This document shows positions 6,367 through 37,000 of a stretch of 64,000 bases of DNA, in pieces. Source of the DNA: an uncultured Gammaproteobacteria bacterium (GTDB taxonomy: Bacteria > Pseudomonadota > Gammaproteobacteria > CAWCPV01); the NCBI GenBank assembly GCA_963797555.1, contig CAWCPV010000004.1, forward strand, positions 96,001-160,000, in the 5' to 3' direction. A program made the translations under genes and the position numbers. Numbering within the stretch: the first letter of the stretch is position 1; every line of letters starts with the position of its first letter. The notes under the pieces are model-generated. The model made no database searches. It was not told the DNA's origin and saw only the letters and a list, made by a program, of their open reading frames with translations.

Positions 6367-8391
6367 TTGGCACTGACCGTTGCCGCATGGGCGGCCGTCT
6401 TCGCTTTGGCATCGGCAGGTGCGAGCTTGGGCCTGGACACCCGGCCCCGGCTGTTCAAGCCCCTCAGCTTCGTGCTCCTCGGGATCTCCGGCGCTTGCGC
6501 GATCATCGCCGCGGGATGGGCGTTGGGGACGGCGACCGCCACGACCGGGGTACTCCCGATTGGTTTGCCCTGGATGCCCTGGCACCTGCGCCTGGACCCG
6601 CTCGCCGGCTTCTTCTTCGGCGTCATCGGGCTGGTCACGCTGGCCGTGGCGTTGTACGGCCCCGGACATCTGCGCGAATATGAGCGCGGTAAGCAACCTC
6701 TTTGGATGCTGGGGCTGTTCACCGGCTTGTTCGTAGCGGGCATGCAGCTCGTCGTGCTCGCCGACGACGCCTTCGCCTTCATGGTGTCCTGGGAGCTGAT
6801 GTCACTCGCGAGCTATTTTCTCGTCGCCTATCAGCACCAGCACGCTGCGAACCGTCGTGCGGCATACCTGTATCTGCTGATGGCGCAAGTGGGAGGCCTG
6901 GCGATCCTCCTCGGCTTCGGCGTGCTCGCCGGCTTCGCCGGCGACTTCACCTTCAACGCGATGCGCGCCGCCGACCTCTCCAAAGGCTGGGAGACGGCGG
7001 CTTTCCTGCTCGCGCTGGTCGGCTTCGGCATGAAGGCGGGGCTGGTGCCGCTCCATGCGTGGCTGCCCGAGGCGCACCCCGTGGCACCCTCCCACATCTC
7101 CGCCCTCATGAGCGGAGTGATGCTGAAGGTGGCCGTCTACGGGTTCATCCGTTTCACCTTCGACCTGATCGGGGAAGTGCAATGGGGGTGGGGACTAGGC
7201 GTGCTCCTCGTCGGCAGCGCTTCGGCGCTGCTCGGGGTGCTGTACGCCCTGATGCAGCATGACCTCAAGCGCCTGCTGGCCTATCACTCGGTGGAGAACA
7301 TCGGGATCATCTTCATCGGGCTCGGACTGGCCATGATCTTCTTCGGCACCGGCCATCCGCGCCTGGGCATCCTGGGCTTCCTCGCGGCCCTCTACCACAC
7401 CTTGAACCACGCCCTATTCAAGAGTCTGCTGTTCATGGGTGCCGGCACCATCATCCAGCACAGCCACCAGCGGGATTTGGAGCACATGGGCGGGCTGATC
7501 CACCGCATGCCGCTTACTTCGGTGTTCTTTCTGGTAGGCTGCGTCAGCATCTCCGCTCTGCCGCCCTTCAACGGCTTCGTCTCCGAGTGGCTCACCTTCC
7601 AGGCCGCTCTCCAGTCTCCGGCGCTCGAGAGCGGCGTGCTGCGCGCCATGATCCCGGTGACCGCGGCCATGCTGGCCTTGACCGGGGCGCTCGCCGCCGC
7701 ATGCTTCGTCAAGGTCTACGGAGTCGCCTTCCTCGGCCAGCCCCGCAGCCGCCACGTGCGGCGGGCGCGCGAAGCGCACTGGGGAATGCATGCGGCGCAA
7801 GCGTGGCTGGCGGCTTTGTGCGTGGTATTCGGGGTGCTGCCCACGTACGCCATCGAATTGATGGACGCTGTCCCGCGCACCCTGCTGGGCCAGGGCCTGC
7901 CCAGCGCGTGGGCCTCGGGCTGGCTGTGGTTGACCCCGGTCTCGCCGGACGTGGCCTCCTATGGAGCACCCCTCGTGCTCGTGGGCCTGTTGCTGAGCGG
8001 GGGGATCGCCTACTGGGTGCTCCACCGTCCCGGTCAGGCCGCCACGGAGCGCCGCAGCCGTCCCTGGGATTGCGGCTTCGGGCCGCTGAGCCCGCGCATG
8101 CAATACACCTCCACGGCCTTCTCCATGCCCATCCGGCGCATCTTTCAGCCGGTGTGGGAGGTGCACGAGACGGTGGACGAGACGCGCGACCCGGTCCAGC
8201 CTCTGCGCGTCGCCGCGATACGCCATGCGCTGCGTGTCGAGGACCGGTCCTGGAGCGTCGTGTACGAGCCCCTCGGGCGCGCGGTGCTGAGCGCCGCTCG
8301 TTACGTCGGACGCATCCAGACCGGGAGCCTGCGCACCTATCTCGCATACTCGTTCTTCACGCTGGTGGTGCTGTTGTGGCTCATCAGCTAA
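6367..8391 (+). CDS. hyfB: Hydrogenase-4 component B-like antiporter subunit (NuoL/MrpA family)
   Basis: SWELMSLASYFLV, KAGLVPLHAWLPEAHP, LKRLLAYHSVENIG, PPFNGFVSEW and WDCG...RMQYT. The TTG at 6367 follows a GGGGAG SD; the ORF is open from 6319. Confidence 0.92.
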   Translation: MALTVAAWAAVFALASAGASLGLDTRPRLFKPLSFVLLGISGACAIIAAGWALGTATATTGVLPIGLPWMPWHLRLDPLAGFFFGVIGLVTLAVALYGPGHLREYERGKQPLWMLGLFTGLFVAGMQLVVLADDAFAFMVSWELMSLASYFLVAYQHQHAANRRAAYLYLLMAQVGGLAILLGFGVLAGFAGDFTFNAMRAADLSKGWETAAFLLALVGFGMKAGLVPLHAWLPEAHPVAPSHISALMSGVMLKVAVYGFIRFTFDLIGEVQWGWGLGVLLVGSASALLGVLYALMQHDLKRLLAYHSVENIGIIFIGLGLAMIFFGTGHPRLGILGFLAALYHTLNHALFKSLLFMGAGTIIQHSHQRDLEHMGGLIHRMPLTSVFFLVGCVSISALPPFNGFVSEWLTFQAALQSPALESGVLRAMIPVTAAMLALTGALAAACFVKVYGVAFLGQPRSRHVRRAREAHWGMHAAQAWLAALCVVFGVLPTYAIELMDAVPRTLLGQGLPSAWASGWLWLTPVSPDVASYGAPLVLVGLLLSGGIAYWVLHRPGQAATERRSRPWDCGFGPLSPRMQYTSTAFSMPIRRIFQPVWEVHETVDETRDPVQPLRVAAIRHALRVEDRSWSVVYEPLGRAVLSAARYVGRIQTGSLRTYLAYSFFTLVVLLWLIS

Positions 8392-9335
8392 CGCTCTGGC
8401 TCCTCGCCCTGCTCCAGGCAGCCCTGTTCGTTGCGGCCGCGCCGCTGCTCGCCGGCTGGGTGAAGCGCTTGAAGTGCCGCTCCCAGAACCGCTCGGCCCC
8501 CTCGCTGTTGCAGCCGTATCGGGATCTGGCGAAGCTGTTTCGCAAGGACTTGGTGCTCGCCGACAACGCCTCGTGGGTGTTCCGCGGCGCCCCTTACATC
8601 GTCTTCGGCGCCACGGTGCTGGCTGCGGCCGTCGTCCCGCTGCTGGCCGTGCACTTGCCAACCGCGGCAGTAGCCGATGTCATCGTACTGGTAGGCTTCT
8701 TTGCCCTGGCGCGATTCTTTCTGGCCCTGGCGGGCATGGACATCGGGACCGCCTTCGGCGGCATGGGTGCTTCCCGGGAGATGACCGTTGCGTCACTGGC
8801 CGAGCCGGCCATGCTCATGGCGGTCTTCACTCTCGCCATGACCGCTTCCACGACCAATCTCTCGGTGGCGATGGAGTCGATCCTGGGATCGGGCTTGGTG
8901 CTGCGCCCGTCTTTCGTGTTCGCCCTGCTGGGCCTCGCCATGGTCGCTGTCGCGGAAACCGGCCGCATCCCGGTGGACAACCCGGCGACGCACTTGGAGC
9001 TGACCATGATCCACGAGGCCATGATCCTGGAGTACACCGGCCGTCATCTGGCACTGATGGAGTGGGCGGCCCAAATCAAGCTAATGACCTATGGGGTGCT
9101 CATCGCCAACATCTTCCTCCCGTGGGGCATCGCCACGGATCTCAGCCTGAAGGCCGTGGTCATCGGGGCGCTTGCCATCACGCTGAAGTTGGCCCTGCTG
9201 TCGGTCGCCCTGGTCGTGAGCGAGACGGTGCTCGCCAAACTGCGGCTGTTTCGCGCGCCCCAGTACCTTAGCTTCGCGTATCTGCTCACGGTGCTCGGCA
9301 TGCTGAGCCACATCATCCTGGAGACGGGCGTCTGA
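8391..9335 (+). CDS. hyfC: HyfC/NuoH-like membrane subunit
   Basis: QPYRDLAKLFRK, FGGMGASRE and AETGRIPVDNPATHLELTMIHEAMILEY. The apparent start is ACG overlapping the hyfB stop (TAACG). Confidence 0.88.
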   Translation, partial: TLWLLALLQAALFVAAAPLLAGWVKRLKCRSQNRSAPSLLQPYRDLAKLFRKDLVLADNASWVFRGAPYIVFGATVLAAAVVPLLAVHLPTAAVADVIVLVGFFALARFFLALAGMDIGTAFGGMGASREMTVASLAEPAMLMAVFTLAMTASTTNLSVAMESILGSGLVLRPSFVFALLGLAMVAVAETGRIPVDNPATHLELTMIHEAMILEYTGRHLALMEWAAQIKLMTYGVLIANIFLPWGIATDLSLKAVVIGALAITLKLALLSVALVVSETVLAKLRLFRAPQYLSFAYLLTVLGMLSHIILETGV

Positions 9336-9336
9336 C

Positions 9337-10015
9337 ATGAGCCTGATGCACCTCAGCCTCTACGAGCAGGCGATCCTCTTCTTCGCCGCCGCCATCCTGT
9401 TCACCTCGTTCGCCATGCTGGCCCAGCCCCGGTCGCTCGCGCTCATCCGCGTATTCGCTTGGCAGGGCGCGATCCTGGCGCTGACCACCGCGTTGGTCGC
9501 CGGGGTGTCCCACCATCCACATCTCTACGTCTCCGCTGTGCTCACCCTCAGCATGAAGGCCCTGCTCATCCCCTGGCTGCTACACCGGCTGGTGGTGCGC
9601 CTCGGTCTGGCTCGGGACGCGGAGCCGCTCAAGAACACCGCCCTGGTGCAGATCGGCGGGGCCAGCGTGGTGGTGTTCAGCTACTATGTCTCGCTGCCGG
9701 TCGTGGAGTTGTCCAAGTTCGTGACCCGCAACACCATCGCCATCAGCCTGGCAGTGGTGCTGCTCGGGCTCCTGCTCGATGATCACGCGGCGCCGCGCGG
9801 TCACGCAGGTGGTCGGCTTCATGGCCATGGAGAACGGGCTATTCTTCGCGGCAGTGGTCTCGACGCTCGGCATGCCCATGGTGGTGGAGCTGGGGGTCGC
9901 CTTCGACGTGCTGGTGGCGGCCATCCTGTTCGGGGTCTTCTTCTTCCAGATCCGGGAGAGCATCGAGTCGCTGGACGTGGACCGGCTCAACCGCCTGACC
10001 GAGGCGGACGAGTGA
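9337..10015 (+). pseudogene. hyfE: HyfE-like membrane subunit with a +1 frameshift near 9778
   Basis: N-terminal 148 codons read as HyfE. The C-terminus (MITRRRAVTQVVGFMAMENG...VELGVAFDV...LNRLTE) is in another frame; one extra base in CTGCTCGATGATC explains this. Confidence 0.8.
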
Positions 10016-11484
10016 CGAGCCTCCTCCTGATGCTCGGCCTGCCCCTCGCGGGTACGCTGGCACTCGCCGCGCTCGGGGGTTACCGCCGGCTCGGCGGGCT
10101 CGTCAACGTCGGCTTCTCCATCGCGACTTTCGCGGCTTCGCTGGGGCTTGCAGCGCAAGTTCTGCGGCATGGACCGCTGCTGTCCCAGGGCAAGTTCCTG
10201 TACATCGACACGTTCAATGTCTACCTGGTGGCGCTGACCGCGTTCGTGGGGATGACGACCGGGATCTTCTCGCGCCGTTACATGGAACATGAGGTGGATC
10301 GCGGGCGCGTGACCCCGCGACGCATGCAGCTCTATCACGCGATGTATCAGGCGTTCATGTTCGCCATGCTGTCGGCGCTCTCCACGAACAACCTGGGAAT
10401 CCTGTGGGTGGCGATGGAGGGAGCCACCCTCGCCACGGCCTTGCTGGTCAGCCTGTACCGTACCCCCGAGTCGGTAGAGGCCGCGTGGAAATACTTCGTA
10501 CTGTGTGGCGTGGGCATCGCACAGGCCCTGTTCGGCACGGTGTTGGTGTTCTTCGCGGCGGAGCGGGTGGCGAGCCTCCCACGGAACGACGCACTCTCCT
10601 GGAGCATCCTGCATAGCCACGCCGGCGAGCTGGACCCCACCATCATGGCCCTGGCCTTCGTCTTCCTTCTCGTCGGCTACGGCACCAAGGTGGGGCTCGT
10701 CCCGCTGCACAACTGGCTGCCGGACGCCCACTCGGAAGGCCCGACTCCCATGTCGGCGATCCTCTCGGGCTTGCTCCTCAACGTGGCGCTATACGCCGTG
10801 GTGCGCCTCAAGATGCTGGTCGACCCGGCCCTCAACGGACCCCTCGCCGGGCACCTGATGATGGGCTTTGGGCTGCTGTCCTTTCTGGTGGCCGCCCTGT
10901 TTCTGCACCGCCAGCGCGACGTCAAGCGCATGTTCAGCTACTCCTCCATAGAACACATGGGGCTCATGACCTTCGGGTTCGGCGTCGGCGGTCCGCTGGC
11001 CACCTTCGGCGCCCTCCTTCACATGACCGTGCACTCGCTCACCAAGTCAGCCATCTTCGTGACCGTTGGCCACGCAGCCCAGGTGGCCAAGACACAGGCG
11101 ATCGACCGCATCCGCGGCCTCATCCGCACCCAGCCTGCGGTGGGTTGGGGCCTGCTCGTCGGCGCGGCGGCCATCGCCGGTTTTCCGCCCTTCGGAGTGT
11201 TCACCAGCGAGTTCCTCTTGCTCACCGCCACGATGCGGAGCTGGCCTTGGCTGACCCTGCCATTGCTCGTCGGGCTCGGCATCGCCTTCGCCGGGCTGTT
11301 CCGACACATCCATCCGATGGTCTACGGAGAGCCGCCCGACCAGCAACGCGCCCTGCCCGCGAACATGCTCCCGGTCGCCCTGCACCTGTTCCTGGTCCTT
11401 TGGCTAGGTCTGTCCATTCCCGGTTTCCTCGGTCGATGGTTCGACCATGCCACCTTCCTGATCTCCGGGACGTCCCTGCTGTGA
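10012..11484 (+). CDS. hyfF: Hydrogenase-4 component F-like antiporter subunit
   Basis: GTGA overlap with the hyfE stop. WVAMEGATLAT, EAAWKY, KVGLVPLHNWLPDAHSEGP and YSSIEHMG motifs. Confidence 0.92.
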   Translation: MTSLLLMLGLPLAGTLALAALGGYRRLGGLVNVGFSIATFAASLGLAAQVLRHGPLLSQGKFLYIDTFNVYLVALTAFVGMTTGIFSRRYMEHEVDRGRVTPRRMQLYHAMYQAFMFAMLSALSTNNLGILWVAMEGATLATALLVSLYRTPESVEAAWKYFVLCGVGIAQALFGTVLVFFAAERVASLPRNDALSWSILHSHAGELDPTIMALAFVFLLVGYGTKVGLVPLHNWLPDAHSEGPTPMSAILSGLLLNVALYAVVRLKMLVDPALNGPLAGHLMMGFGLLSFLVAALFLHRQRDVKRMFSYSSIEHMGLMTFGFGVGGPLATFGALLHMTVHSLTKSAIFVTVGHAAQVAKTQAIDRIRGLIRTQPAVGWGLLVGAAAIAGFPPFGVFTSEFLLLTATMRSWPWLTLPLLVGLGIAFAGLFRHIHPMVYGEPPDQQRALPANMLPVALHLFLVLWLGLSIPGFLGRWFDHATFLISGTSLL

Positions 11485-29495: not shown

Positions 29496-29673
29496 CGGCA
29501 GCGCCGAGAATGACCGACACGTCATGGGTGCGAGCCCGCGGCGTTAGCCGACGCCTTGGTGCGAGCTCGTCTCTGAGCATGGTCCGGGAATCGTCGGTGA
29601 CATGGGTGAGCGGCGCGAGCCGCATCCCGTTTGAGAGATCGAGTCGATTTCGATGCTTCCCATGGCGCTGCCG
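29496..29673 (+). ncRNA. Candidate IS110 bridge/seek-type structured RNA upstream of the transposase
   Basis: Closing 10-bp perfect IR CGGCAGCGCC / GGCGCTGCCG, internal GCGA-tetraloop hairpins; ends 25 nt before the IS110 ATG. Confidence 0.5.
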
Positions 29674-29698
29674 TTCCTCAACGATAGTGGAGCAGGCC

Positions 29699-30930
29699 AT
29701 GGCGATGCGCAAGCGAGAAGAGGAGGTTTTTCCCAACGCGGCGGCGGTGGAGGTAGGGGCATCGAGTCACTGGGTGGCAGTGCCTGCGCATCGCAGCGAT
29801 GCCCCGGTGCGCGAAGTCGCTACGATGACCGATGACCTCAACGCCCTGGCCGACTGGCTACTCGCCTGCGGGGTCGATGGGGTGGCGCTGGAGTCCACTG
29901 GGGGGTACTGGGTCCCGGTGTACGAGGTGTTGGAGAGCCGCGGCTTGAAGGTGTGGCGGGTTGATGCGCGGCAGGTGAAGTACGTGCCGGGGCGCAAGAG
30001 CGACGTGCAGGACTGCCAGTGGCTGCAAAAGCTCGTGAGCCATGGGCTGCTGCGCGCAGCGTTGCGACCCGCGGCTCACCGAGCAGGCCAGTTGGGTGCA
30101 GCGCATGCAAAAGGCGCTAGTGCAGATGAACATCCAGCTCACCGAGGTCATCAGCGACGTGACGGGCCAGGCGATCATCGGCGACATTGTGTCCGGCCAG
30201 CGCGATGCGCGGGTGCTGGCGCGGCACCGTCAGCCGGCGCATCCGGGCCAGCGAGCAAGACATCGCGCGAGCGCTGACGGGCAACTGGCGCGAGGAGCAC
30301 CTGTTCGTGCTCAAGCAGGCGCTGGGGATGTATGAGGACGATGCCCAGTGGCTGGCCATGTTGGCTCGCGCCGGTCTGTTGCGCGCCTCCTTCGTGCCGA
30401 AGGCCAAACTGCGCGAGCTGCGCCTGATCGCCCGGCAGCGACAGAAGCTCGTGGGCTTGGCTGCCTCGGAGAAGAACCGGCTGCACAAGGTGCTCACCGA
30501 TGGTGGCATCCGCCTGGGGGTGGTGGTGAGCGATATCCACGGCCAGTCGGCCCGTGCCATGCTGAAAGCCCTCATCCAGGGGGCTGCTGCCCACGAGGTC
30601 CTCCCCCTGGCCAGCCGCCGGCTGAAGGCGAGCCGCGAGGAGCTGCTCGATGCCCTGCAGGGGGACCTGACCGAGTCTCATCGCTTCGTCCTCGATGAAT
30701 TGATGCGCCACATCGAGGAGCTCGAAGCCCGCATCGCCCGCTTCGATGCTCGCTTGCTCGAAGGCCTGAAGGAGGAGGCCAACAGCCTGCTGTTGTTGCA
30801 GACCCTACCAGGGGTCAATGTCATCGGTGCCGCCATGCTGCTGGTGGAAATCGGTAGCGACATGAGCGCCTTCGGTCATGCCGAGCGGCTCGCTTCCTGG
30901 GTGGGTATCTGCCCCGGCAACCACGAGTCG
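29699..30930 (+). mobile_element. Two fused IS110-family transposase remnants
   Basis: First piece: PNAAAVEVGASSHW, ALESTGGYW, VPGRKSDVQDCQWL. Second piece from about 30335: DAQWLA..ARAGLLRASFVP...TLPGV...VEIG.DM..F...CPGNHES, cut at 30930. Confidence 0.85.
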
Positions 30931-31752
30931 CCTGCGCATCCCAACCTGCGCGGCCCCGAGTACTACCACTGAAGAGGACCTCCGAGATGCTCACTCATCC
31001 CACCCTAGAGAAACTCTCCGCCCTGCGGCTCAACGGCATGCTGAAGGCAGGACCAACAGCATACCCCGGACATCGAGGCGCTCTGCTTCGAGGAGCGCCT
31101 GCGTGGAGGACATCGACTACCGCGCCCCGCGGGGGCTGGACAAGGCGCTGATGGCCACTCTCGCCTCCTGCCGCTGGGTGGACGAGCACCTCAATGTGCT
31201 GATCACCGGTCCCACGGGGGTGGGCAAGAGCTATCTCGCCTGCGCACTCGCCCACAAGGCGTGCCGAGAAGGCCACAGCGCGCTCTACCAGCGTCTGCCG
31301 CGACTGCTCCAGGACCTCTCGCTCGCCCGCGGCGATGGGCGTTACGGAGCATTGCTTACCAGCCTTGCCAAAGTGGATGTCCTGGTGCTCGACGACTGGG
31401 GGCTCGCCAAGCTGACCGAGGAGCACCGCCGCGATCTGTTGGAGCTACTCGATGACCGCCACGGCCTGCGCTCCACCCTGGTCACCAGTCAGCTCCCCGT
31501 GGAGCACTGGCACGAGCGCCTCGGCGACCCCACGCTCGCCGATGCCATCCTGGACCGCTTGGTCCACAACGCCTACAAGCTCACTCTCAAAGGAGACTCG
31601 ATGCGAAAGAAACGCTCACCCTTGACCCAAACCGCTCAGTTGCAGTAAAAGTGAACGGCCCTGCGTCGCTTCGCTCCGACCACCGATCGGTTTCACCGGT
31701 CTGGGTGATCACTTTGCCGTGGACCAGGCGATCGATTTGCGTGGAATACGCA
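30931..31752 (+). mobile_element. istB: IS21-family remnant: istA C-terminus, istB ATPase (internal deletion) and right end
   Basis: [37 protein letters not shown] and ADAILDRL. Repeated GATC-containing terminal motifs end in ...GGAATACGCA at 31752. Confidence 0.88.
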
Positions 31753-31898: not shown

Positions 31899-32000
31899 CT
31901 TCGAGCCTCCCGTTGGATGGGGGTGGGGCATCGCCGAATCGCGCACGGTAGCCGGGAACTATTGCCCGTTGCCCGGCTTTGACAGGCTCGAAGCCAATCT

Positions 32001-33244
32001 CTAACGAGGCTTCGCCTCAGACCGTCGAGGCATGGGGAGCACAGACGGAGGGTTCCGAGTGTTGCAGAGCGTGGTAGGGTGTACGCGCTGCGTTAGATCG
32101 CTCAAGCGATCGGACCCTGTGGGTCAAGGAAGTGACACTCGGAGCCCAGGAGCCATGATAGCCAAAAACGTTGCGGAGCTGATCCGAGATCATGTGGTGC
32201 TGGAGGTCGAGAGCCTCGATCGGCTGTACCTCAACGGCTATGTGCCTGGGCTGCAGAGCGAAGGGGGCTTTGTGCATTTCGTGCGCAGTCACCTTGGCTA
32301 TCCCATCGCCTCCACCGCGGTGATCGCCCCCATGACCGAGGCGTTCGTCCGCTCCATCGAGCGGTTTGCGCAGGAGAGGCGCATTGATGTGGTCGCCTTC
32401 GAGAAAGGACAGCGCAAGGACGATGTGGCGAAGGAGTACCTGGCAAGGTGTGCTTTCTCCGAAGGGGTATTGTTCATCGGCAAGGCCCAGGAGAAGGCCT
32501 CGGTGTTCCGCACCACCGGCAGGAAGCACCCCGAGACCGGCCAGCGCTATCCTTGGATCACGCGCGGCTCGGCCCTGCCCAACCACTATTACTTCTACCT
32601 CCTGGATGAGGACTTCGGGCCGCTGTTTATCAAGTTCTGCTCGTACTTCCCCTATGCGGTCAAGGTGTGCCTCAATGGCCACGAGTGGGTCAAGCGCCAG
32701 CTCGCCAAGGAGGGCATCGCCTTCACTGCCCTCGACAACGGTGTGCTCTGGTGCGAGAACCCCCAGCGGCTGCAGCAACTGTGCGCGGAGCTGGACGCCG
32801 AGAAGATCGAAGCGGTGTTTGGCAAGTGGCTGGCGCGGCTGCCTCACCCCTTTCGCCCGGAGGACCGGCAAGCGGGTTACCGATACGCGCTGTCCATCCT
32901 GCAGGCCGAGTTCTCGCTCACCCAAGTGCTCGATTGCCCCCGAACGGGCCGGCAGTTCTTCGAGGAGGTCATCCGCGAGAACCTCGACCTCGGCCGGCCC
33001 GACCGGGTGCAGCTCATCTTCGGCCGCAAGGTCACCCGCCGCACCCCGGGGACGTTTCGCACCCGCGCCCATGCCCGCTTCTTCCGGCTCACCTTCGCCC
33101 TCGACGGACCCATCAGCCCCGCTCGGGCCACGCGCGCCTTCCTCCAAGCCAGCAGCGCAGTGGACCGGCTCATCGAAGAGGTGAAACTCGCCGCTTGAAA
33201 ACTTGACTCAAGATCCAAGAATCAGTCGCACTCAAGGACTTCTA
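32001..33244 (+). mobile_element. Unclassified TIR-less mobile element with structured leader; ORF 32155-33198, probably internally deleted
   Basis: TCTA at both boundaries (32000-32003, 33241-33244), no terminal IR, multi-branch leader at 32020-32147, AGGAG SD. Protein motifs HVVLEVESLDRLYLNG, HYYFYLLDEDFG, CSYFPY, LNGHEW, QAEFS. Confidence 0.6.
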
Positions 33245-33310
33245 GCGGCTGCTGGGCCAATCGTTCACCCAGACGAGCCAGTCGGGTAACGCTTCGTAGG
33301 AGGGGTGCCG

Positions 33311-33796
33311 ATGGAGGAATTGCCGCTGCAATTGGAAATCGTGGGGCTGCCCGCGCATGTTGAGAGCTGGAGCGTTGCAAAGATACCCGGCTTCGTGCTT
33401 GCGGTGCTGAAGCGCTGGCGCAGAAACCAGGTTCGGCTGCCGCGCACTTTCAGCATGCTCATGTGCCCCCAAGTGGAGGTCAACGCCGTTGGCGGCTTGC
33501 CGCCCAGGGTCGTGGAGCTGACCGACCCCAAGCTCCGCTGCCGGCACTTCACCGGTTGCCACAAGCCCTATCTGGTGGTGCTCTTCACCGGCGAAGATGC
33601 GGAGGAGCGCCGGATCGAGGCGCAGGCGTTTCTCTCTTGGTCGGAAGGGTACAACGTGGAGCTGACACCCGATACCGTGCGCTTGACGTTCGCCGCGGCC
33701 AGCGAGGAGACGATCCACGAACGCGGCGATTTTCCGCCACCGCGGACCATACAGGAGTTGCTCGCGACCGGCGAGCTGGTGAGCATCTTGTCCTAG
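33311..33796 (+). CDS. Hypothetical protein (161 aa)
   Basis: AGGAGG SD before ATG 33311; gene-like GC3-rich codons; no recognised motif. Confidence 0.55.
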   Translation: MEELPLQLEIVGLPAHVESWSVAKIPGFVLAVLKRWRRNQVRLPRTFSMLMCPQVEVNAVGGLPPRVVELTDPKLRCRHFTGCHKPYLVVLFTGEDAEERRIEAQAFLSWSEGYNVELTPDTVRLTFAAASEETIHERGDFPPPRTIQELLATGELVSILS

Positions 33797-34083: not shown

Positions 34084-37000
34084 CCTAGAAAGCTCAGTCG
34101 ACCAAGTGCAAGCTGCCTGGGAATCAGGCAGGCTGTGGGTTTCGAGGCATTGAAGGGGGTCACCCGATGGGTGAGTCGAGACTGGAGCCGGTGGGGGCGC
34201 AAGAAAGGATTGCATCGTGTGCCGGGGTGCAGACGGCTGGGGGCCGGGTGCAAGTGCGCTGGGAGACCGAGAGCGCGGCCACGCCGATGGGCCAGCTTGC
34301 GTACTTCATCGAATTTCTCACGCTCACTGGACTGTGGTCGCGCTGGCAAGAGGGCTACCCGTTGCGTTACGTGAGTCCCAATGCGCCGAGCAAGGCCGAG
34401 GTGCTTGGCACCTGGATGCTGTCGATTCTGTCCGGTCACAGGCGCTATGCGCATGTCACGGCGATCCGCTGCGATGGCGTCAATCCGGGGCTGCTCGGCA
34501 TGAACAAGGTGATCAGCGAGGATGCCCTGCGCCGGGCGCTCGCCGCGAACCCCCGAAGCCGCAGGCGTCGCCTGGCTGGACCGGCACCTGGAGGAAAGTG
34601 TGGCGCTGTTGCTCGATGCGCCGTGGATTCTCGACATCGACATGGCGGGGCTGCGGCTGGTCGTCGGCGCCGAGGTCAAGGCGGGCGATGCGCACTCGGG
34701 CAGCCACAGCCTGCCGGGGCTGCTGAAGATACTCGACGCCCTCTCGCCCCCCAGACGACCGAAGCTGGTGCGCGGCGATTGCGGTTTCGGCTCCGACACC
34801 CTCATGGCTCCGCTGGAGGAGCGGCAACCACCCTACCTGTTCAAGCTCAAGCTCTCGAAGAACGTCAAACGTCACATCGAGCGCATCTTCTGGGGCAGCG
34901 GCTGGTCCGATGCCGGTCAGGGCTGGGAAGGCAAGGACGGCAGCCTGCGTCTGTGTGGCTGGCAGGCGCCGCGGCGCGTCGTGGTGTTGCGCCGCCCGCT
35001 CCAGGGCAAAGTGCTGATTGCGCAGGACCATAACGGCCAGCAACTGCTGGGTTTCATCGAGGCGGACCGAAAGGCGGGTAAGAACATCACCGGCTACGAG
35101 TATGCCGTGCTGGTGACCAATACCGACTACGAGATTCGAAGCCTCGGCCAACTCTACCGGGACCGGGCCGACGCCGAGAATGCCTTCGAGGAGCTGAAGA
35201 ACCAGTGGGGTTGGGGCGCCTTCACCACCCACAACCTGCACCGCTGCCAGCTCTCGGCCCGCGCCGTGGCGCTCATCTACAACTGGTGGAGCCTGTTCGT
35301 CCGCCTGGCCCACCCCAAGGCCCGGCGCGAGGCCATCACCAGCCGGCCGTGGTTGCTCGCCTCGGTGGGACGCAAGACCGAACATGCCGGCCAGACCACC
35401 CTGACGCTCACCGGATTGCATGCCCATTTCGGTCAAGCCAAAGCAGCCCTGATGCGTGTCTCTGCCTTGTTCCAGACCTGGACAGCCTACGCTGCGGAGC
35501 AGTTGAACCCGACCTCCGTCTGGCACCTCGTCTGCGACCATCTCAAGCGCCTCCTCGCCGGCGTTAAACCGCCTCCCCACCGTCGGGCTATCGAAAATCA
35601 TACGTGCGCCATCGGCTAACTGCGGTTTTTAGTCCGACTTCGCGGATTCGCGGGGTAGGGATAGCGTAAGTGGTTGAAATTGCGAGAGGGTGCCTGGCAA
35701 GGTCTGCACTACATCGCGGCGGCTGAGGCAGTGTGGGCGGTGCTGATTTTCGGAGCTGGTGGTGCGGGCAGTTCGAGCTTCAACTGCGCGAGGAGCAGTT
35801 GCAGTTCTGGCTCAGGTTGGGTGTAGCGGGTGAACGTCAATTCGCGCCCATCGGTGGTCGGCACCGGTACGTCGACCATCTGCACGGCGGCGAATTTCTC
35901 CAGCACGCTGCGCGTGGTTAATCCAGGCGCGAGCGCATGCAAACGTCGCCCGAGCGTGACATGCAGACAATAGGCAAGAAAGGCAATGAAGATATGGGCT
36001 TCGATACGCTCGATGTGTTGATGAAAGATTGGCCGAATGGCCAAATCCCCCTTGAGATTCTTGAATGCTTCTTCCACCGCCACCAGTTGCAGGTAAAACC
36101 CCCATAGCTTGGCGGGATCGGTGTCGGTGAGATTGGTGCGCAGCAGATACCGTCCTTCGCGCCGGCGCACTTCACGCAGCTTATCGCGGCGCAGGCGGTA
36201 GCTAAACGTGGCGTCCTTGGGGTCGACCTCCAGTTGAACCAAGCGCCATACCGCCGGGCCGTGTTGGCGCGCCGCACCGAGCTTCATCAGCAGCTGCTCG
36301 CGGGTGAGCTGCATGGTCGCGAGTTTCTTCAACCGCGCCCATAACCACTTCAGCTTGCGCCGTCGTATCGCACGCTCCTTCGCCACGCGCTGTTCACTTT
36401 GCGCGTACACATACAGCTCCCCATCCTGCGCCAACAGTTTCACGGCTACGCCGGGGCGCGCTTCCCGCCACGGCTTGAGCAACAGCGCGCTCTCCAATTT
36501 GCTGAGCCGCCCCTTGGGCGTGCCCACCAGGTCAGTGCACTGGCGGGCGACTTGCGCGCATCTCTTCCAGCACCGCTTCGGTCGGAATGCCGCGGTCCAT
36601 CACCCAAATCCGCTGCGCTCTTCCGTACTGACGCTCAATGCGCGCGAGGAACTCCTTCAACGTCGTCTTGTCGGCCGTATTGCCCACCAACACTTCATAG
36701 GCCAAGGGCAAGCCTTCCGGGGTCACCACCCAGGCGATCACCACCTGCACACAGTCCCTGCGCTTATCGCGCGAGTGGCCGAATCGTCGTTTGTCCTGCT
36801 CCGACTGCGGGGGCTCACACTCAAAGTAGGTGCTCGTGAGGTCGTAGAGCAGCACCTCGAAGGTGGCATTGAACAGATCCCGCCACCGCCGCACCAGATG
36901 GTCAAAGACCGCCGCCTTGTGCTCCAGCAAGCGGTCGTGACAGACATACAGCCGGTGGCTGTCGGAGAGCGCCGCATCCGCTCCGAGCAAATCCGCCAAG

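Follow-up and report, generated by a model that had tools for sequence, protein, structure and literature searches.

The window analysed here, a stretch of 64,000 nucleotides (nt) from a contig of an uncultured gammaproteobacterium, contains at 32001-33245 (+) a dead, non-autonomous and internally deleted relic of an insertion sequence (IS) of about 1.8 kb. The best reading of this ~1.8-kb element, set apart from the named groups by way of Pfam, NCBIfam and the literature without recourse to ISfinder, is that it represents an undescribed IS family. We think it probable that the single protein of this family is a Rep_trans-like tyrosine nuclease, that the element moves by rolling-circle or "peel-and-paste" transposition, and that the structured leader of its gene serves translational control. 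A more far-reaching proposal, to which we give nearly but not quite an even chance and which we advance tentatively, is that these CTAG-targeting elements are the first transposon class whose enzyme is a tyrosine nuclease of TBP fold (Rep_trans/Rep-Arvir-like), in addition to the classes HUH Y1 and Y2, with the leader perhaps acting in the transposition complex.

The element consists of one open reading frame (ORF) behind a 154-nt leader; it starts with CTAA and ends with CTAG. Its ends were set at 32001 and 33245 because three comparisons agree: (i) other copies in its own genome (84.6% complete, 20 contigs) gave DNA matches that begin at 32001 and stop at 33232-33245; (ii) copy-versus-copy blastn within seven other genomes placed the left boundary at CTA(A/G)CGAGGC..GCCTCAGACCG.CGAG and the right boundary at ..TCAAG-N4-6-CTAG; and (iii) contigs of relatives (~90-95% similar) from three RNA-library runs matched from exactly 32001 to exactly 33245, with unlike sequence beyond. 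Four sequencing runs were compared, all as contigs, and none shared at least half of the window's sequence words. No terminal inverted repeat was visible when both ends were read side by side, either in the window copy or in copies from other genomes. The unit is therefore a discrete element without terminal inverted repeats. A preliminary description of this DNA had proposed such a mobile unit, at 32000-33244 and bounded by TCTA; its mobility and lack of inverted repeats are borne out by the multiple copies in other genomes, but the copy comparisons move its coordinates by one base and give the core as CTA(A/G), written CTAR below.

The ORF (32155..33198, +) encodes 347 residues, which correspond to residues 1-305 and 490-531 of a family protein of ~531 residues. 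At the point where the full-length relative P0002 (94% identity) reads ..GTFRTR-VLTAG.., then 184 residues in all, then ..FFTRAQ-ARFF.., the window reads ..GTFRTRAHARFF... Contigs of the RNA-library runs X15 and X19 contain ~510-545 extra bases between window positions 33067 and 33060, and the contig pieces of run X17 break at the same two places. An 8-nt repeat, CACCCGCG, is common to both sides of the missing segment and forms the junction at 33060..33067 (+). Because of the undeleted contigs and this common repeat, we conclude that the window copy lost ~552 bp (184 codons), in frame, between short direct repeats. The preliminary description, which took the family protein to be longer and put a deletion at TFRTR|AHAR, had this junction exactly, as judged against P0002 and the RNA-library contigs. 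The shortened ORF keeps the first TBP-like repeat (with D22, D151 and E252) and lacks residues 306-489, so that the strands bearing K324-x-Y326-x-K328 and R334-x-E336 are gone together with the winged helix. Having lost the putative catalytic tyrosine, the RxE strand and the winged helix, this copy cannot be active. No intact copy was found in its own genome, which holds only the window copy and fragments, two of them left-end-plus-leader truncations at 85-90% identity and not miniatures. A second copy there, C5:116952-117821 (L002, L003, L010, L011), consists of two adjacent pieces in opposite orientation at 99% DNA identity, and looks like a rearranged fragment.

The 347-residue ORF matched nothing in Pfam, NCBIfam or PHROGs, and the same Pfam and NCBIfam searches did name the neighbouring IS genes; the earlier observation that the protein shows no recognizable transposase motif agrees with the absence of any named transposase family among the Pfam and NCBIfam matches. 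Five full-length members likewise matched no Pfam family at E<=1, and yielded only two NCBIfam rows at chance level (E 0.016-0.02), far below the cut-off. A sequence search of PDB produced no significant match (one row, E 0.93), a PDB profile search nothing relevant, and ESM Atlas unnamed clusters only. Relatives are nonetheless plentiful. In a word-indexed protein search all 8000 of the 8000 scored candidates lay at E<=1e-3, and the best 120 of these matches were mostly 529-537 residues long and covered only ~88% of the query. An exhaustive HMMER search recovered 12,089 representatives (50% identity clusters) at E<=1e-3, of which 1349 lay at E<=1e-30. Matches on plasmid records (Burkholderia, Caballeronia, Paraburkholderia, Rhodococcus, Mycobacterium) were mostly labelled "hypothetical protein" or unannotated, one being called an "ArsR family transcriptional regulator". 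Among species-representative genomes, 232 of 423 candidate stretches encoded a relative. Judged by record title, the 80 loci kept from these genomes belong to Gamma- and Alphaproteobacteria, Acidobacteriota, Actinomycetota, Cyanobacteria, Spirochaetes, Planctomycetota, Chloroflexota, Gemmatimonadota, Armatimonadota, Myxococcota and Desulfobacterales. The family is thus abundant in many bacterial lineages, yet absent from every family library searched (Pfam and NCBIfam, and PHROGs for the window ORF), and in the literature searched we found no paper describing it, nor any describing a TBP-fold or Rep_trans transposase. These results agree with the preliminary description, in which the element was a possible undescribed transposon class: no named IS group emerged from Pfam, NCBIfam or the literature, ISfinder lying outside this coverage.

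The copies within a genome speak for mobility. By blastn in the seven genomes, they were 96.4-99.9% identical over 1.81-1.85 kb and had unrelated flanks, and whole-genome searches of five genomes returned 2-13 matches each. Full-length copies numbered five in one genome and four in another, and a third contained two subfamilies (1 + 4 copies). The homologs are accordingly not single-copy genes in conserved synteny, the situation named at the outset as the one that would speak against mobility. Many homologs lie on contigs of ~1.8-2.2 kb, which would also be expected if the ORF served a very small integrated rolling-circle replicon or satellite as its replication initiator or regulator, with chromosomal copies arising through occasional host-mediated integration; the nearest catalytic relatives by fold, discussed below, are indeed replication initiators and relaxases. 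We consider this origin very improbable. Integrated copies with exact ends and a defined target are found at many unrelated places in chromosomes, the element has no further gene that could provide integration, and the short contigs (L017, L059) stop at or near the element ends, as is usual for collapsed repeats. To judge from sequence, the superfamily extends beyond the CTAG element: two distant paralogs at 28% identity to the family, L129 and L130, lie head to tail on contig C28 of genome G035 (8252-9661 and 9975-11267) and retain D22, D151, E252, K-x-Y-x-K and R-x-E.

We examined the protein by structure prediction. An AlphaFold2 model of P0002, made from 27 hand-picked full-length homologs (30-76% identity; alignment A1), had a mean predicted local distance difference test score (pLDDT) of 86.6 and a predicted template modelling score (pTM) of 0.77. 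A second model, of the N-terminal 381 residues alone and made from 20 translated loci (alignment A2, from which L034 was excluded for its stop codons), had a pLDDT of 86.0 and a pTM of 0.84. The predicted architecture is an N-terminal TBP-like double repeat, then a winged helix, then C-terminal helices. Residues ~8-382 of the full-length model align over essentially all of TBP (1mp9: Z 9.2, 176-181 residues), and residues ~381-503 are predicted to form a winged helix-turn-helix, with Z 9.0-9.6 to HxlR, PadR and MarR proteins. The best PDB match by Foldseek was the Rep_trans initiator RepSTK1 (4cij: E 2.7e-3, probability 0.84-0.91). When the domain model was compared with 48,161 representative chains, the top seven comprised five TBP-containing chains (Z 9.4, 7.9, 7.7, 7.2 and 7.0, the first being 1mp9_B with 177 of 189 residues aligned) and two Rep_trans structures, 4cij_A (Z 7.2, 189 residues aligned, root-mean-square deviation 4.6) and 4cwc_A (Z 7.1, 181 residues aligned, root-mean-square deviation 4.9); most chains at Z 6.8 and below aligned over far fewer residues, mostly within one repeat. 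Eight predicted viral proteins in BFVD matched at E<=1e-3. The BFVD matches include a viral TBP and several unnamed proteins, and at rank 46 (E 2.1e-2) stands A0A345MNV4, which PMC13107129 gives as an inovirus Rep_trans protein with PF02486. Given that the family has no TBP match in Pfam and occurs in bacterial mobile elements, the modelled likeness to TBP is one of shared fold and not of membership.

According to Carr et al. (PMC4797284), the Rep_trans catalytic domain is a curved sheet with TBP connectivity whose inner face bears a tyrosine and three acidic metal ligands; the DNA offers its nick site on a hairpin, and a second inverted repeat serves as the binding site of a distinct DNA-binding domain. 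The motifs of this group are listed in the review PMC5714925 as N' (D), I (RxD), II, III (YxKxxE) and IV (W/LxRxE). Candidate counterparts are conserved in the present family. Invariant among the 27 homologs of A1 are D22, R23, E113, Y146, G155, P166, N174, H176, N195, Q250, E252, F289, K324, Y326, R334, D344, Y453, L455 and L458. In A2, which adds paralogs at 26-28% identity, D22, R23, K88, D151, E252, K324, K328, R334 and E336 are still invariant, and Y146 and Y148 are His in some sequences. Y326 is present in 27/27 sequences of A1 and 19/20 of A2, the exception being one copy with Asp. The model puts K324, Y326 and K328 at alternate positions of one strand and R334 and E336 on the following one, and it places the conserved acidic candidates D22, D151, E252 and E336 on four different strands. 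The family's ..KIKQY326HKEG.. and ..ALR334TE336.. resemble ..FIRIY191NKKQE.. and ..LWR212VE214.. of pT181 RepC. Fold and motifs together favour the earlier guess of a Rep_trans-like rolling-circle protein, and we suggest, on the models and alignments, that the family protein probably works like a Rep_trans enzyme without being filed as a member of Rep_trans.

Several observations weigh against this assignment. The motif likeness is local, the distance from the Tyr to the Arg being eight residues in the family and 21 in RepC. An hhalign comparison of the N-terminal alignment with a RepC alignment, itself shallow (rows at least 83% identical), gave a probability of 0.05%, and PF02486 matched neither any of the five full-length members (Pfam, E<=1) nor anything in the window's own genome. 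A Z score of ~7 is only middling, and it is equalled or exceeded by that of TBP, a non-enzyme. The candidate active-site residues were compared with those of RepC by motif and predicted strand. Finally, the RNA-library contigs, which give the ends and the undeleted form, do not by themselves prove transcription.

Insertion sites were compared across loci. A script placed the left end, the ORF (at least 480 codons) and the right end in all loci, giving 66 instances; restriction to unique cases with 40 nt or more of flank on either side left 51, and nine loci with a left end and no rule-conforming right end were excluded from the target count. The left tetranucleotide was CTAA in 33 of the 51 unique insertions, CTAG in 16 and TTAG in two. 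The right one was CTAG in all 51, a figure that the selection rule imposes by requiring CTAG; the unfiltered listing contains right-end exceptions in L087 (CTAA), L020 and L031. Since the left and right tetranucleotides differ in 35/51 insertions, an ordinary target duplication does not account for them. In the left flank, A occupies position -4 in 40/51 insertions (background 19% A) and position -5 in 23, and no mirror-image preference was found in the right flanks of the same 51 insertions. From this asymmetric preference we infer that the target, 5'-A-N3-CTAG, is itself asymmetric and is entered in one orientation.

The state of the uninterrupted target was read from reading frames across the junction in eight loci. 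In L116 (299 + 299 open codons), L091 (210 + 299) and L119 (82 + 84) a joined frame requires that 4 (or 1 or 7) nt be left behind. The TAG of the flanking CTAG terminates the upstream frame in L107, L112 and L079, and in the first two of these an ATG in the long downstream frame lies 8 and 2 nt past that TAG, respectively. L103 has no long reading frame and is uninformative as to the target. L104, which first looked in-frame, is not a clear in-gene insertion: the flanking gene starts near the insertion, and CTAA and CTAG targets are indistinguishable there. A single CTAR in the uninterrupted target, often a TAG stop codon where two genes of an operon meet, is the best explanation for the sites examined. 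Two nested arrangements agree with one CTAR in the empty site: in L121 an element is inserted precisely at the terminal CTA|G of another, which belongs to the 52%-identical subfamily B, and in L093 a diverged left-end fragment comes immediately after a right end, with one CTAG common to both. Empty sites were also sought by flank. The flanks of the window copy have no second, uninterrupted copy in its own genome beyond the neighbouring IS21 end; its right flank had no match in 30 genomes of the same class, and the flank of a Pseudomonadales copy none in 20 relatives.

The same data allow a different chemistry, in which a double-stranded circle bearing one CTAG enters CTAG by conservative site-specific recombination, following the logic of IS110 or IS607, and the saddle and winged helix bind or bend DNA without Rep_trans-like catalysis. 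A CTAR core lies on both sides of the element, and by the evidence of the sites examined the empty site would hold just one; moreover, a left tetranucleotide that is subfamily-specific and a right one that is nearly always CTAG are what a crossover in or near a shared core predicts. The L093 junction, a right end and a left-end fragment with one CTAG in common, could be read in the same way, and it suits this scheme that TBP scores at least as high as Rep_trans. The strand data also favour it. Local GC skew around the insertions showed no orientation bias (positive at 16 and negative at 18 of 34 loci), in a noisy test from which 17/51 loci with a total flank below 2.5 kb were excluded, and five copies on one complete chromosome lie on both strands. 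Both results count against a strict lagging-strand targeting of single-stranded DNA, and because of them the circle scheme stays live. We regard it as unlikely all the same. No serine-recombinase, tyrosine-recombinase or DEDD domain is detectable with Pfam or NCBIfam, and the preference for A at -4 is confined to the left side, which makes the target asymmetric. The conserved motifs YxK and RxE are predicted on adjacent strands, the arrangement of Rep_trans, and the junctions in L093 and L121 could equally have arisen by insertion at the terminal CTAG of a resident element.

The termini of the element were compared across the family; all features given here and below for the element lie on the forward strand. 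The left tetranucleotide CTAA (32001..32004) is CTAA, CTAG or TTAG family-wide and constant within a subfamily. Five nt inside the boundary is a hairpin, GAGGC-TTC-GCCTC (32006..32018), which in other subfamilies is GGGGC..GCCCC, changed on both sides. It is followed by a conserved box, CAGACCGTCGAGGCATG (32018..32034), and a 5-bp stem, CCGTC/GACGG (32022..32048), whose arms, noticed already in the preliminary description, pair as 32022-26 with 32044-48 in the minimum-free-energy (MFE) structure. In an Acidobacteria subgroup the left-end hairpin extends to a ~26-bp stem that pairs the whole terminus, and the CCGTC/GACGG stem looks like a vestige of this long (~26 bp) hairpin. In the right-end region (33199..33241) a conserved box, AAACTTGACTCAAG, comes right behind the stop codon, and another TCAAG (33232-36) precedes the terminal CTAG (33242..33245) by 5 nt. 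The CTTGA/TCAAG palindromes that had been described inside the 3' end are present, at 33202-06, 33208-12 and 33232-36. The right-end CTTGA(C) and (G)TCAAG are able to pair, and CTTGAC and TCAAG boxes recur in the right-end tails of most listed relatives, some being degenerate or cut. These palindromic motifs could instead be dimer-binding sites in duplex DNA, which would tell against a single-strand reaction.

Some further features of the ends were noted. An outward-facing junction promoter, considered for the site TTGAAA-16-AAGAAT at 33195-33222 (+), was rejected, as relatives have no conserved -10; a TTGACT box beside this promoter-like site is conserved in the family. In L019 (4128-4447), the right-end region of a Terriglobia copy recurs beyond the right end, as a partial direct repeat and as an inverted repeat. 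Subfamily B (L109, L114, L118 and L121 of genome G033; 52% identical) has a left end that starts CCAATGAAGC.. instead of CTAACGAGGC..., preceded by ~20 nt (GTTTATGAGATGGCT..) that vary between otherwise 99.8% identical copies and are partly duplicated in L114. This stretch is either part of a longer, repeat-bearing left end or the mark of a preference for a repeated target. At the right end of subfamily B, the base after CTA varies (G, G, A) among 99.8% identical copies.

The leader between the left-end stem and the ORF is strongly structured. A 16-bp stem pairs 32050-32065 with 32132-32147, three of the pairs being G-U (T32053-G32144, T32063-G32134, G32064-T32133). The MFE structure of the leader, at -75.6 kcal/mol (z -3.9; 1/200 shuffles as good), retains 14 of the 16 stem pairs around three hairpins (32064-32091, 32096-32111 and 32113-32125), and its antisense folds less well (-64.9 vs -75.6 kcal/mol). 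The result is a four-way junction at 32050..32147, made up of P1 (32050-32063/32134-32147), P2 (32064-32091), P3 (32096-32111) and P4 (32113-32125). The 3' arm of P1, CGGAGCCC, carries the family Shine-Dalgarno sequence GGAG; AGGAG and then the ATG start (32155) follow within 32148..32157. The window fold matches the preliminary description of a sense-strand 16-bp stem that encloses three hairpins and ends at the Shine-Dalgarno sequence. Separate MFE folds of 55 leaders from other loci mostly gave the same plan, the left-end hairpin coming first and then a closing stem GGCTCCGG.../...CCGGAGCC around three hairpins, with the GGAG held in its 3' arm ~6-10 nt before the start codon.

Conservation of this structure was assessed in 31 leaders at <=85% identity, aligned with plain MAFFT after exclusion of two of 33 representatives, L064 (early stop) and L021 (wrong coordinates). 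Over P1 and P3 (18 pairs), 86.4% of cells were paired as against 75.9 +/- 0.9% in shuffles, 14/18 pairs showed changes on both sides, and 61 such cells compared with 19.5 in shuffles; 0/500 shuffles reached these values. Relatedness among the sequences inflates covariation counts, but it is retained in controls in which the pairing partner was slid, and there the paired cells dropped to 27-49%. A covariance model made from the 31-leader alignment found the domain on the + strand of 54/60 sources (55 matches), after removal of three weak minus-strand echoes. In the 54 distinct domains the mean z was -3.97 (51/54 below -2), the sense strand was the more stable in 45/54 (mean difference 3.8 kcal/mol), and exactly three hairpins occurred in 38/54 as compared with 1292/3240 shuffles. 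RNAalifold, on either the MAFFT or the covariance-model alignment, recovers only P1; the column-wise covariation covers P1 and P3, and P2 and P4 are seen sequence by sequence. The structure is real, conserved and specific to the sense strand, whether as RNA or as top-strand DNA. The covariance-model check proposed beforehand thus came out in its favour, with compensatory changes and a preference for the sense strand.

Because P1 hides the ribosome-binding site, we read the leader first as a translational brake, and from the predicted structures it most likely limits translation of the transposase. In IS200, too, a leader that hides the ribosome-binding site and limits transposase translation is combined with an end hairpin. 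That the Shine-Dalgarno sequence is sequestered is itself read from structure predictions, a circumstance that tempers this part of the interpretation. The junction is, further, more elaborate than hiding a ribosome-binding site needs. A leader conserved as a four-way junction in loci from many lineages, with compensatory changes, a better-folding sense strand and no match in Rfam, and lying in the 5' non-coding end where the IS110 bridge RNA also lies, could be a functional non-coding RNA of transposition: a guide, bridge or scaffold like that bridge RNA or the IS605 omega RNA. This we hold to be rather improbable, since the flanks of same-subfamily copies share only A-N3-CTAG and so offer no extended target for a guide. 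In addition, the GGAG found ~6-10 nt ahead of the start codon falls in the 3' arm of P1, and no discrete RNA ends were seen in the runs, which were available as contigs only. RNA guidance of the target was rejected on the ground that these copies share nothing in their flanks beyond that motif, and the "RNA-assisted" alternative of the preliminary description finds no support, there being no extended common target. Beyond a probable role as a translational brake, the four-way leader may be part of the transposition complex.

The anatomy of the element is that of the single-strand tyrosine-nuclease transposons (IS200/IS605, IS91), as it has no inverted repeats, subterminal hairpins, a fixed orientation relative to its asymmetric target and one tetranucleotide in the empty site, and the modelled fold of the protein leads to the second known family of nucleases of this kind. 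We therefore return to the Rep_trans-like tyrosine nuclease and postulate the following scheme for an intact element of ~1.8 kb, which would comprise one gene, a left-end hairpin, a CTTGAC...GTCAAG pair inside the right end and CTA(A/G) on each side. The winged helix and the beta-saddle would bind the end structures. Tyr326, within K-x-Y-x-K, may act with a metal held by some of D22, D151, E252 and E336 (R-x-E), such that one strand would be nicked at the CTAR sites through a 5'-phosphotyrosine link and transferred to a CTAG target. The reaction might be of the rolling-circle or peel-and-paste style, analogous to that of the IS91 and IS200/IS605 HUH transposases but built on another fold, and the four-way junction on the sense strand, whose closing stem is predicted to bury the Shine-Dalgarno sequence, would limit translation of the transposase.

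The window copy lies in a stretch at 29-37 kb that is a pile of IS remnants. To its left is an IS110-family transposase gene at 29510-30972 (+), split between overlapping frames of which the first (29510-30277) encodes the DEDD part and the second (30187-30972) the Transposase_20 part; the gene is probably frameshifted and dead. The IS21 helper ATPase gene istB follows at 30878-31648 (+) with no adjacent istA, and an IS21 end lies at ~31752, the point as far as which a 253-bp match of 100% identity on contig C5 extends. Just to the right of the element, a 163-residue ORF at 33305-33796 (+) matched nothing in Pfam, NCBIfam or PHROGs, and its DNA was unmatched in 30 genomes of the same class. 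Further right are C-terminal fragments of an IS1380-like DDE transposase (34522-35619, +) and an IS1634-like DDE transposase (35709-36527, -).

For the window itself, then, the copy is a dead relic among IS fragments, and the wider interest lies in the family. To our knowledge, the mechanistic classes of transposase are DDE, DEDD, HUH, the tyrosine and serine recombinases, and Cas1. If the proposed mechanism is right, an abundant bacterial IS whose protein falls outside these classes would add a transposase class, on the TBP/Rep_trans fold, and would provide (i) a second link, after HUH, between the initiators of rolling-circle plasmids and phages and transposons, and (ii) a third, structurally independent solution to single-strand transposition beside HUH Y1 and Y2. 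It would also account for thousands of "hypothetical proteins" and for many ~2-kb contig breaks in metagenome assemblies. Annotators would gain a model for an element that lands on the rare CTAG, on TAG stop codons and hence at operon junctions, and a compact enzyme recognizing a short site and a hairpin could interest tool builders.

Among the known systems closest to the family are the Rep_trans (PF02486)/MOBT proteins (RepC/RepD of pT181/pC221, RepSTK1, NicK). Like them, it is predicted to have a TBP-like curved double-repeat sheet, with a conserved Tyr in a strand-borne YxK, RxE on the next strand and a conserved Asp in the first strand, and it shares a separate DNA-binding domain after the catalytic one and substrate hairpins next to the break site. 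The two differ in that there is no sequence-level match, the family domain spans ~380 residues with large insertions as against ~200-240, and its DNA-binding domain is a winged helix. The breaks, moreover, fall beside the hairpin and not in its loop, and the family is an integrated multi-copy transposon, not a plasmid, phage or integrative and conjugative element. In PMC13107129, archaeal Rep-Arvir is described as an N-terminal TBP-fold catalytic domain followed by a MarR-like winged helix and a C-terminal region, with a kinship to Rep_trans visible only by structure. Rep-Arvir/DUF7845 thus has the same domain order as the family and, according to that paper, a hairpin as cis element, but its members are archaeal virus and plasmid replication proteins, in contrast to a bacterial insertion sequence. 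PF25227 of Rep-Arvir gave no match in Pfam at E<=1, its presence in the Pfam copy searched being unconfirmed.

With IS200/IS605 and IS91/ISCR, the family has in common the lack of terminal inverted repeats and of ordinary target duplication, subterminal hairpins, insertion beside a specific tetranucleotide in a fixed orientation and, by analogy, a likely Tyr nucleophile with a metal. Unlike them, it has no HUH motif or Y1/Y2 domain by Pfam or NCBIfam, its predicted fold is TBP-like and not RRM-like, and no replication-strand bias was detected. IS5-group elements carry a DDE transposase and insert at CTAG or CTAA with a 4-bp duplication. The preference for a CTAR tetranucleotide is shared with them, whereas IS5 combines terminal inverted repeats with DDE, and the present family has no DDE domain and flanking tetranucleotides that differ in 35/51 insertions. 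IS110/IS1111 resembles it in having no terminal inverted repeats, a short common core at both junctions and a structured non-coding 5' region. It differs in that the family shows no extended, subfamily-specific target and lacks DEDD_Tnp_IS110 and Transposase_20, for which the neighbouring IS110 gene, found by the same searches, served as a positive control.

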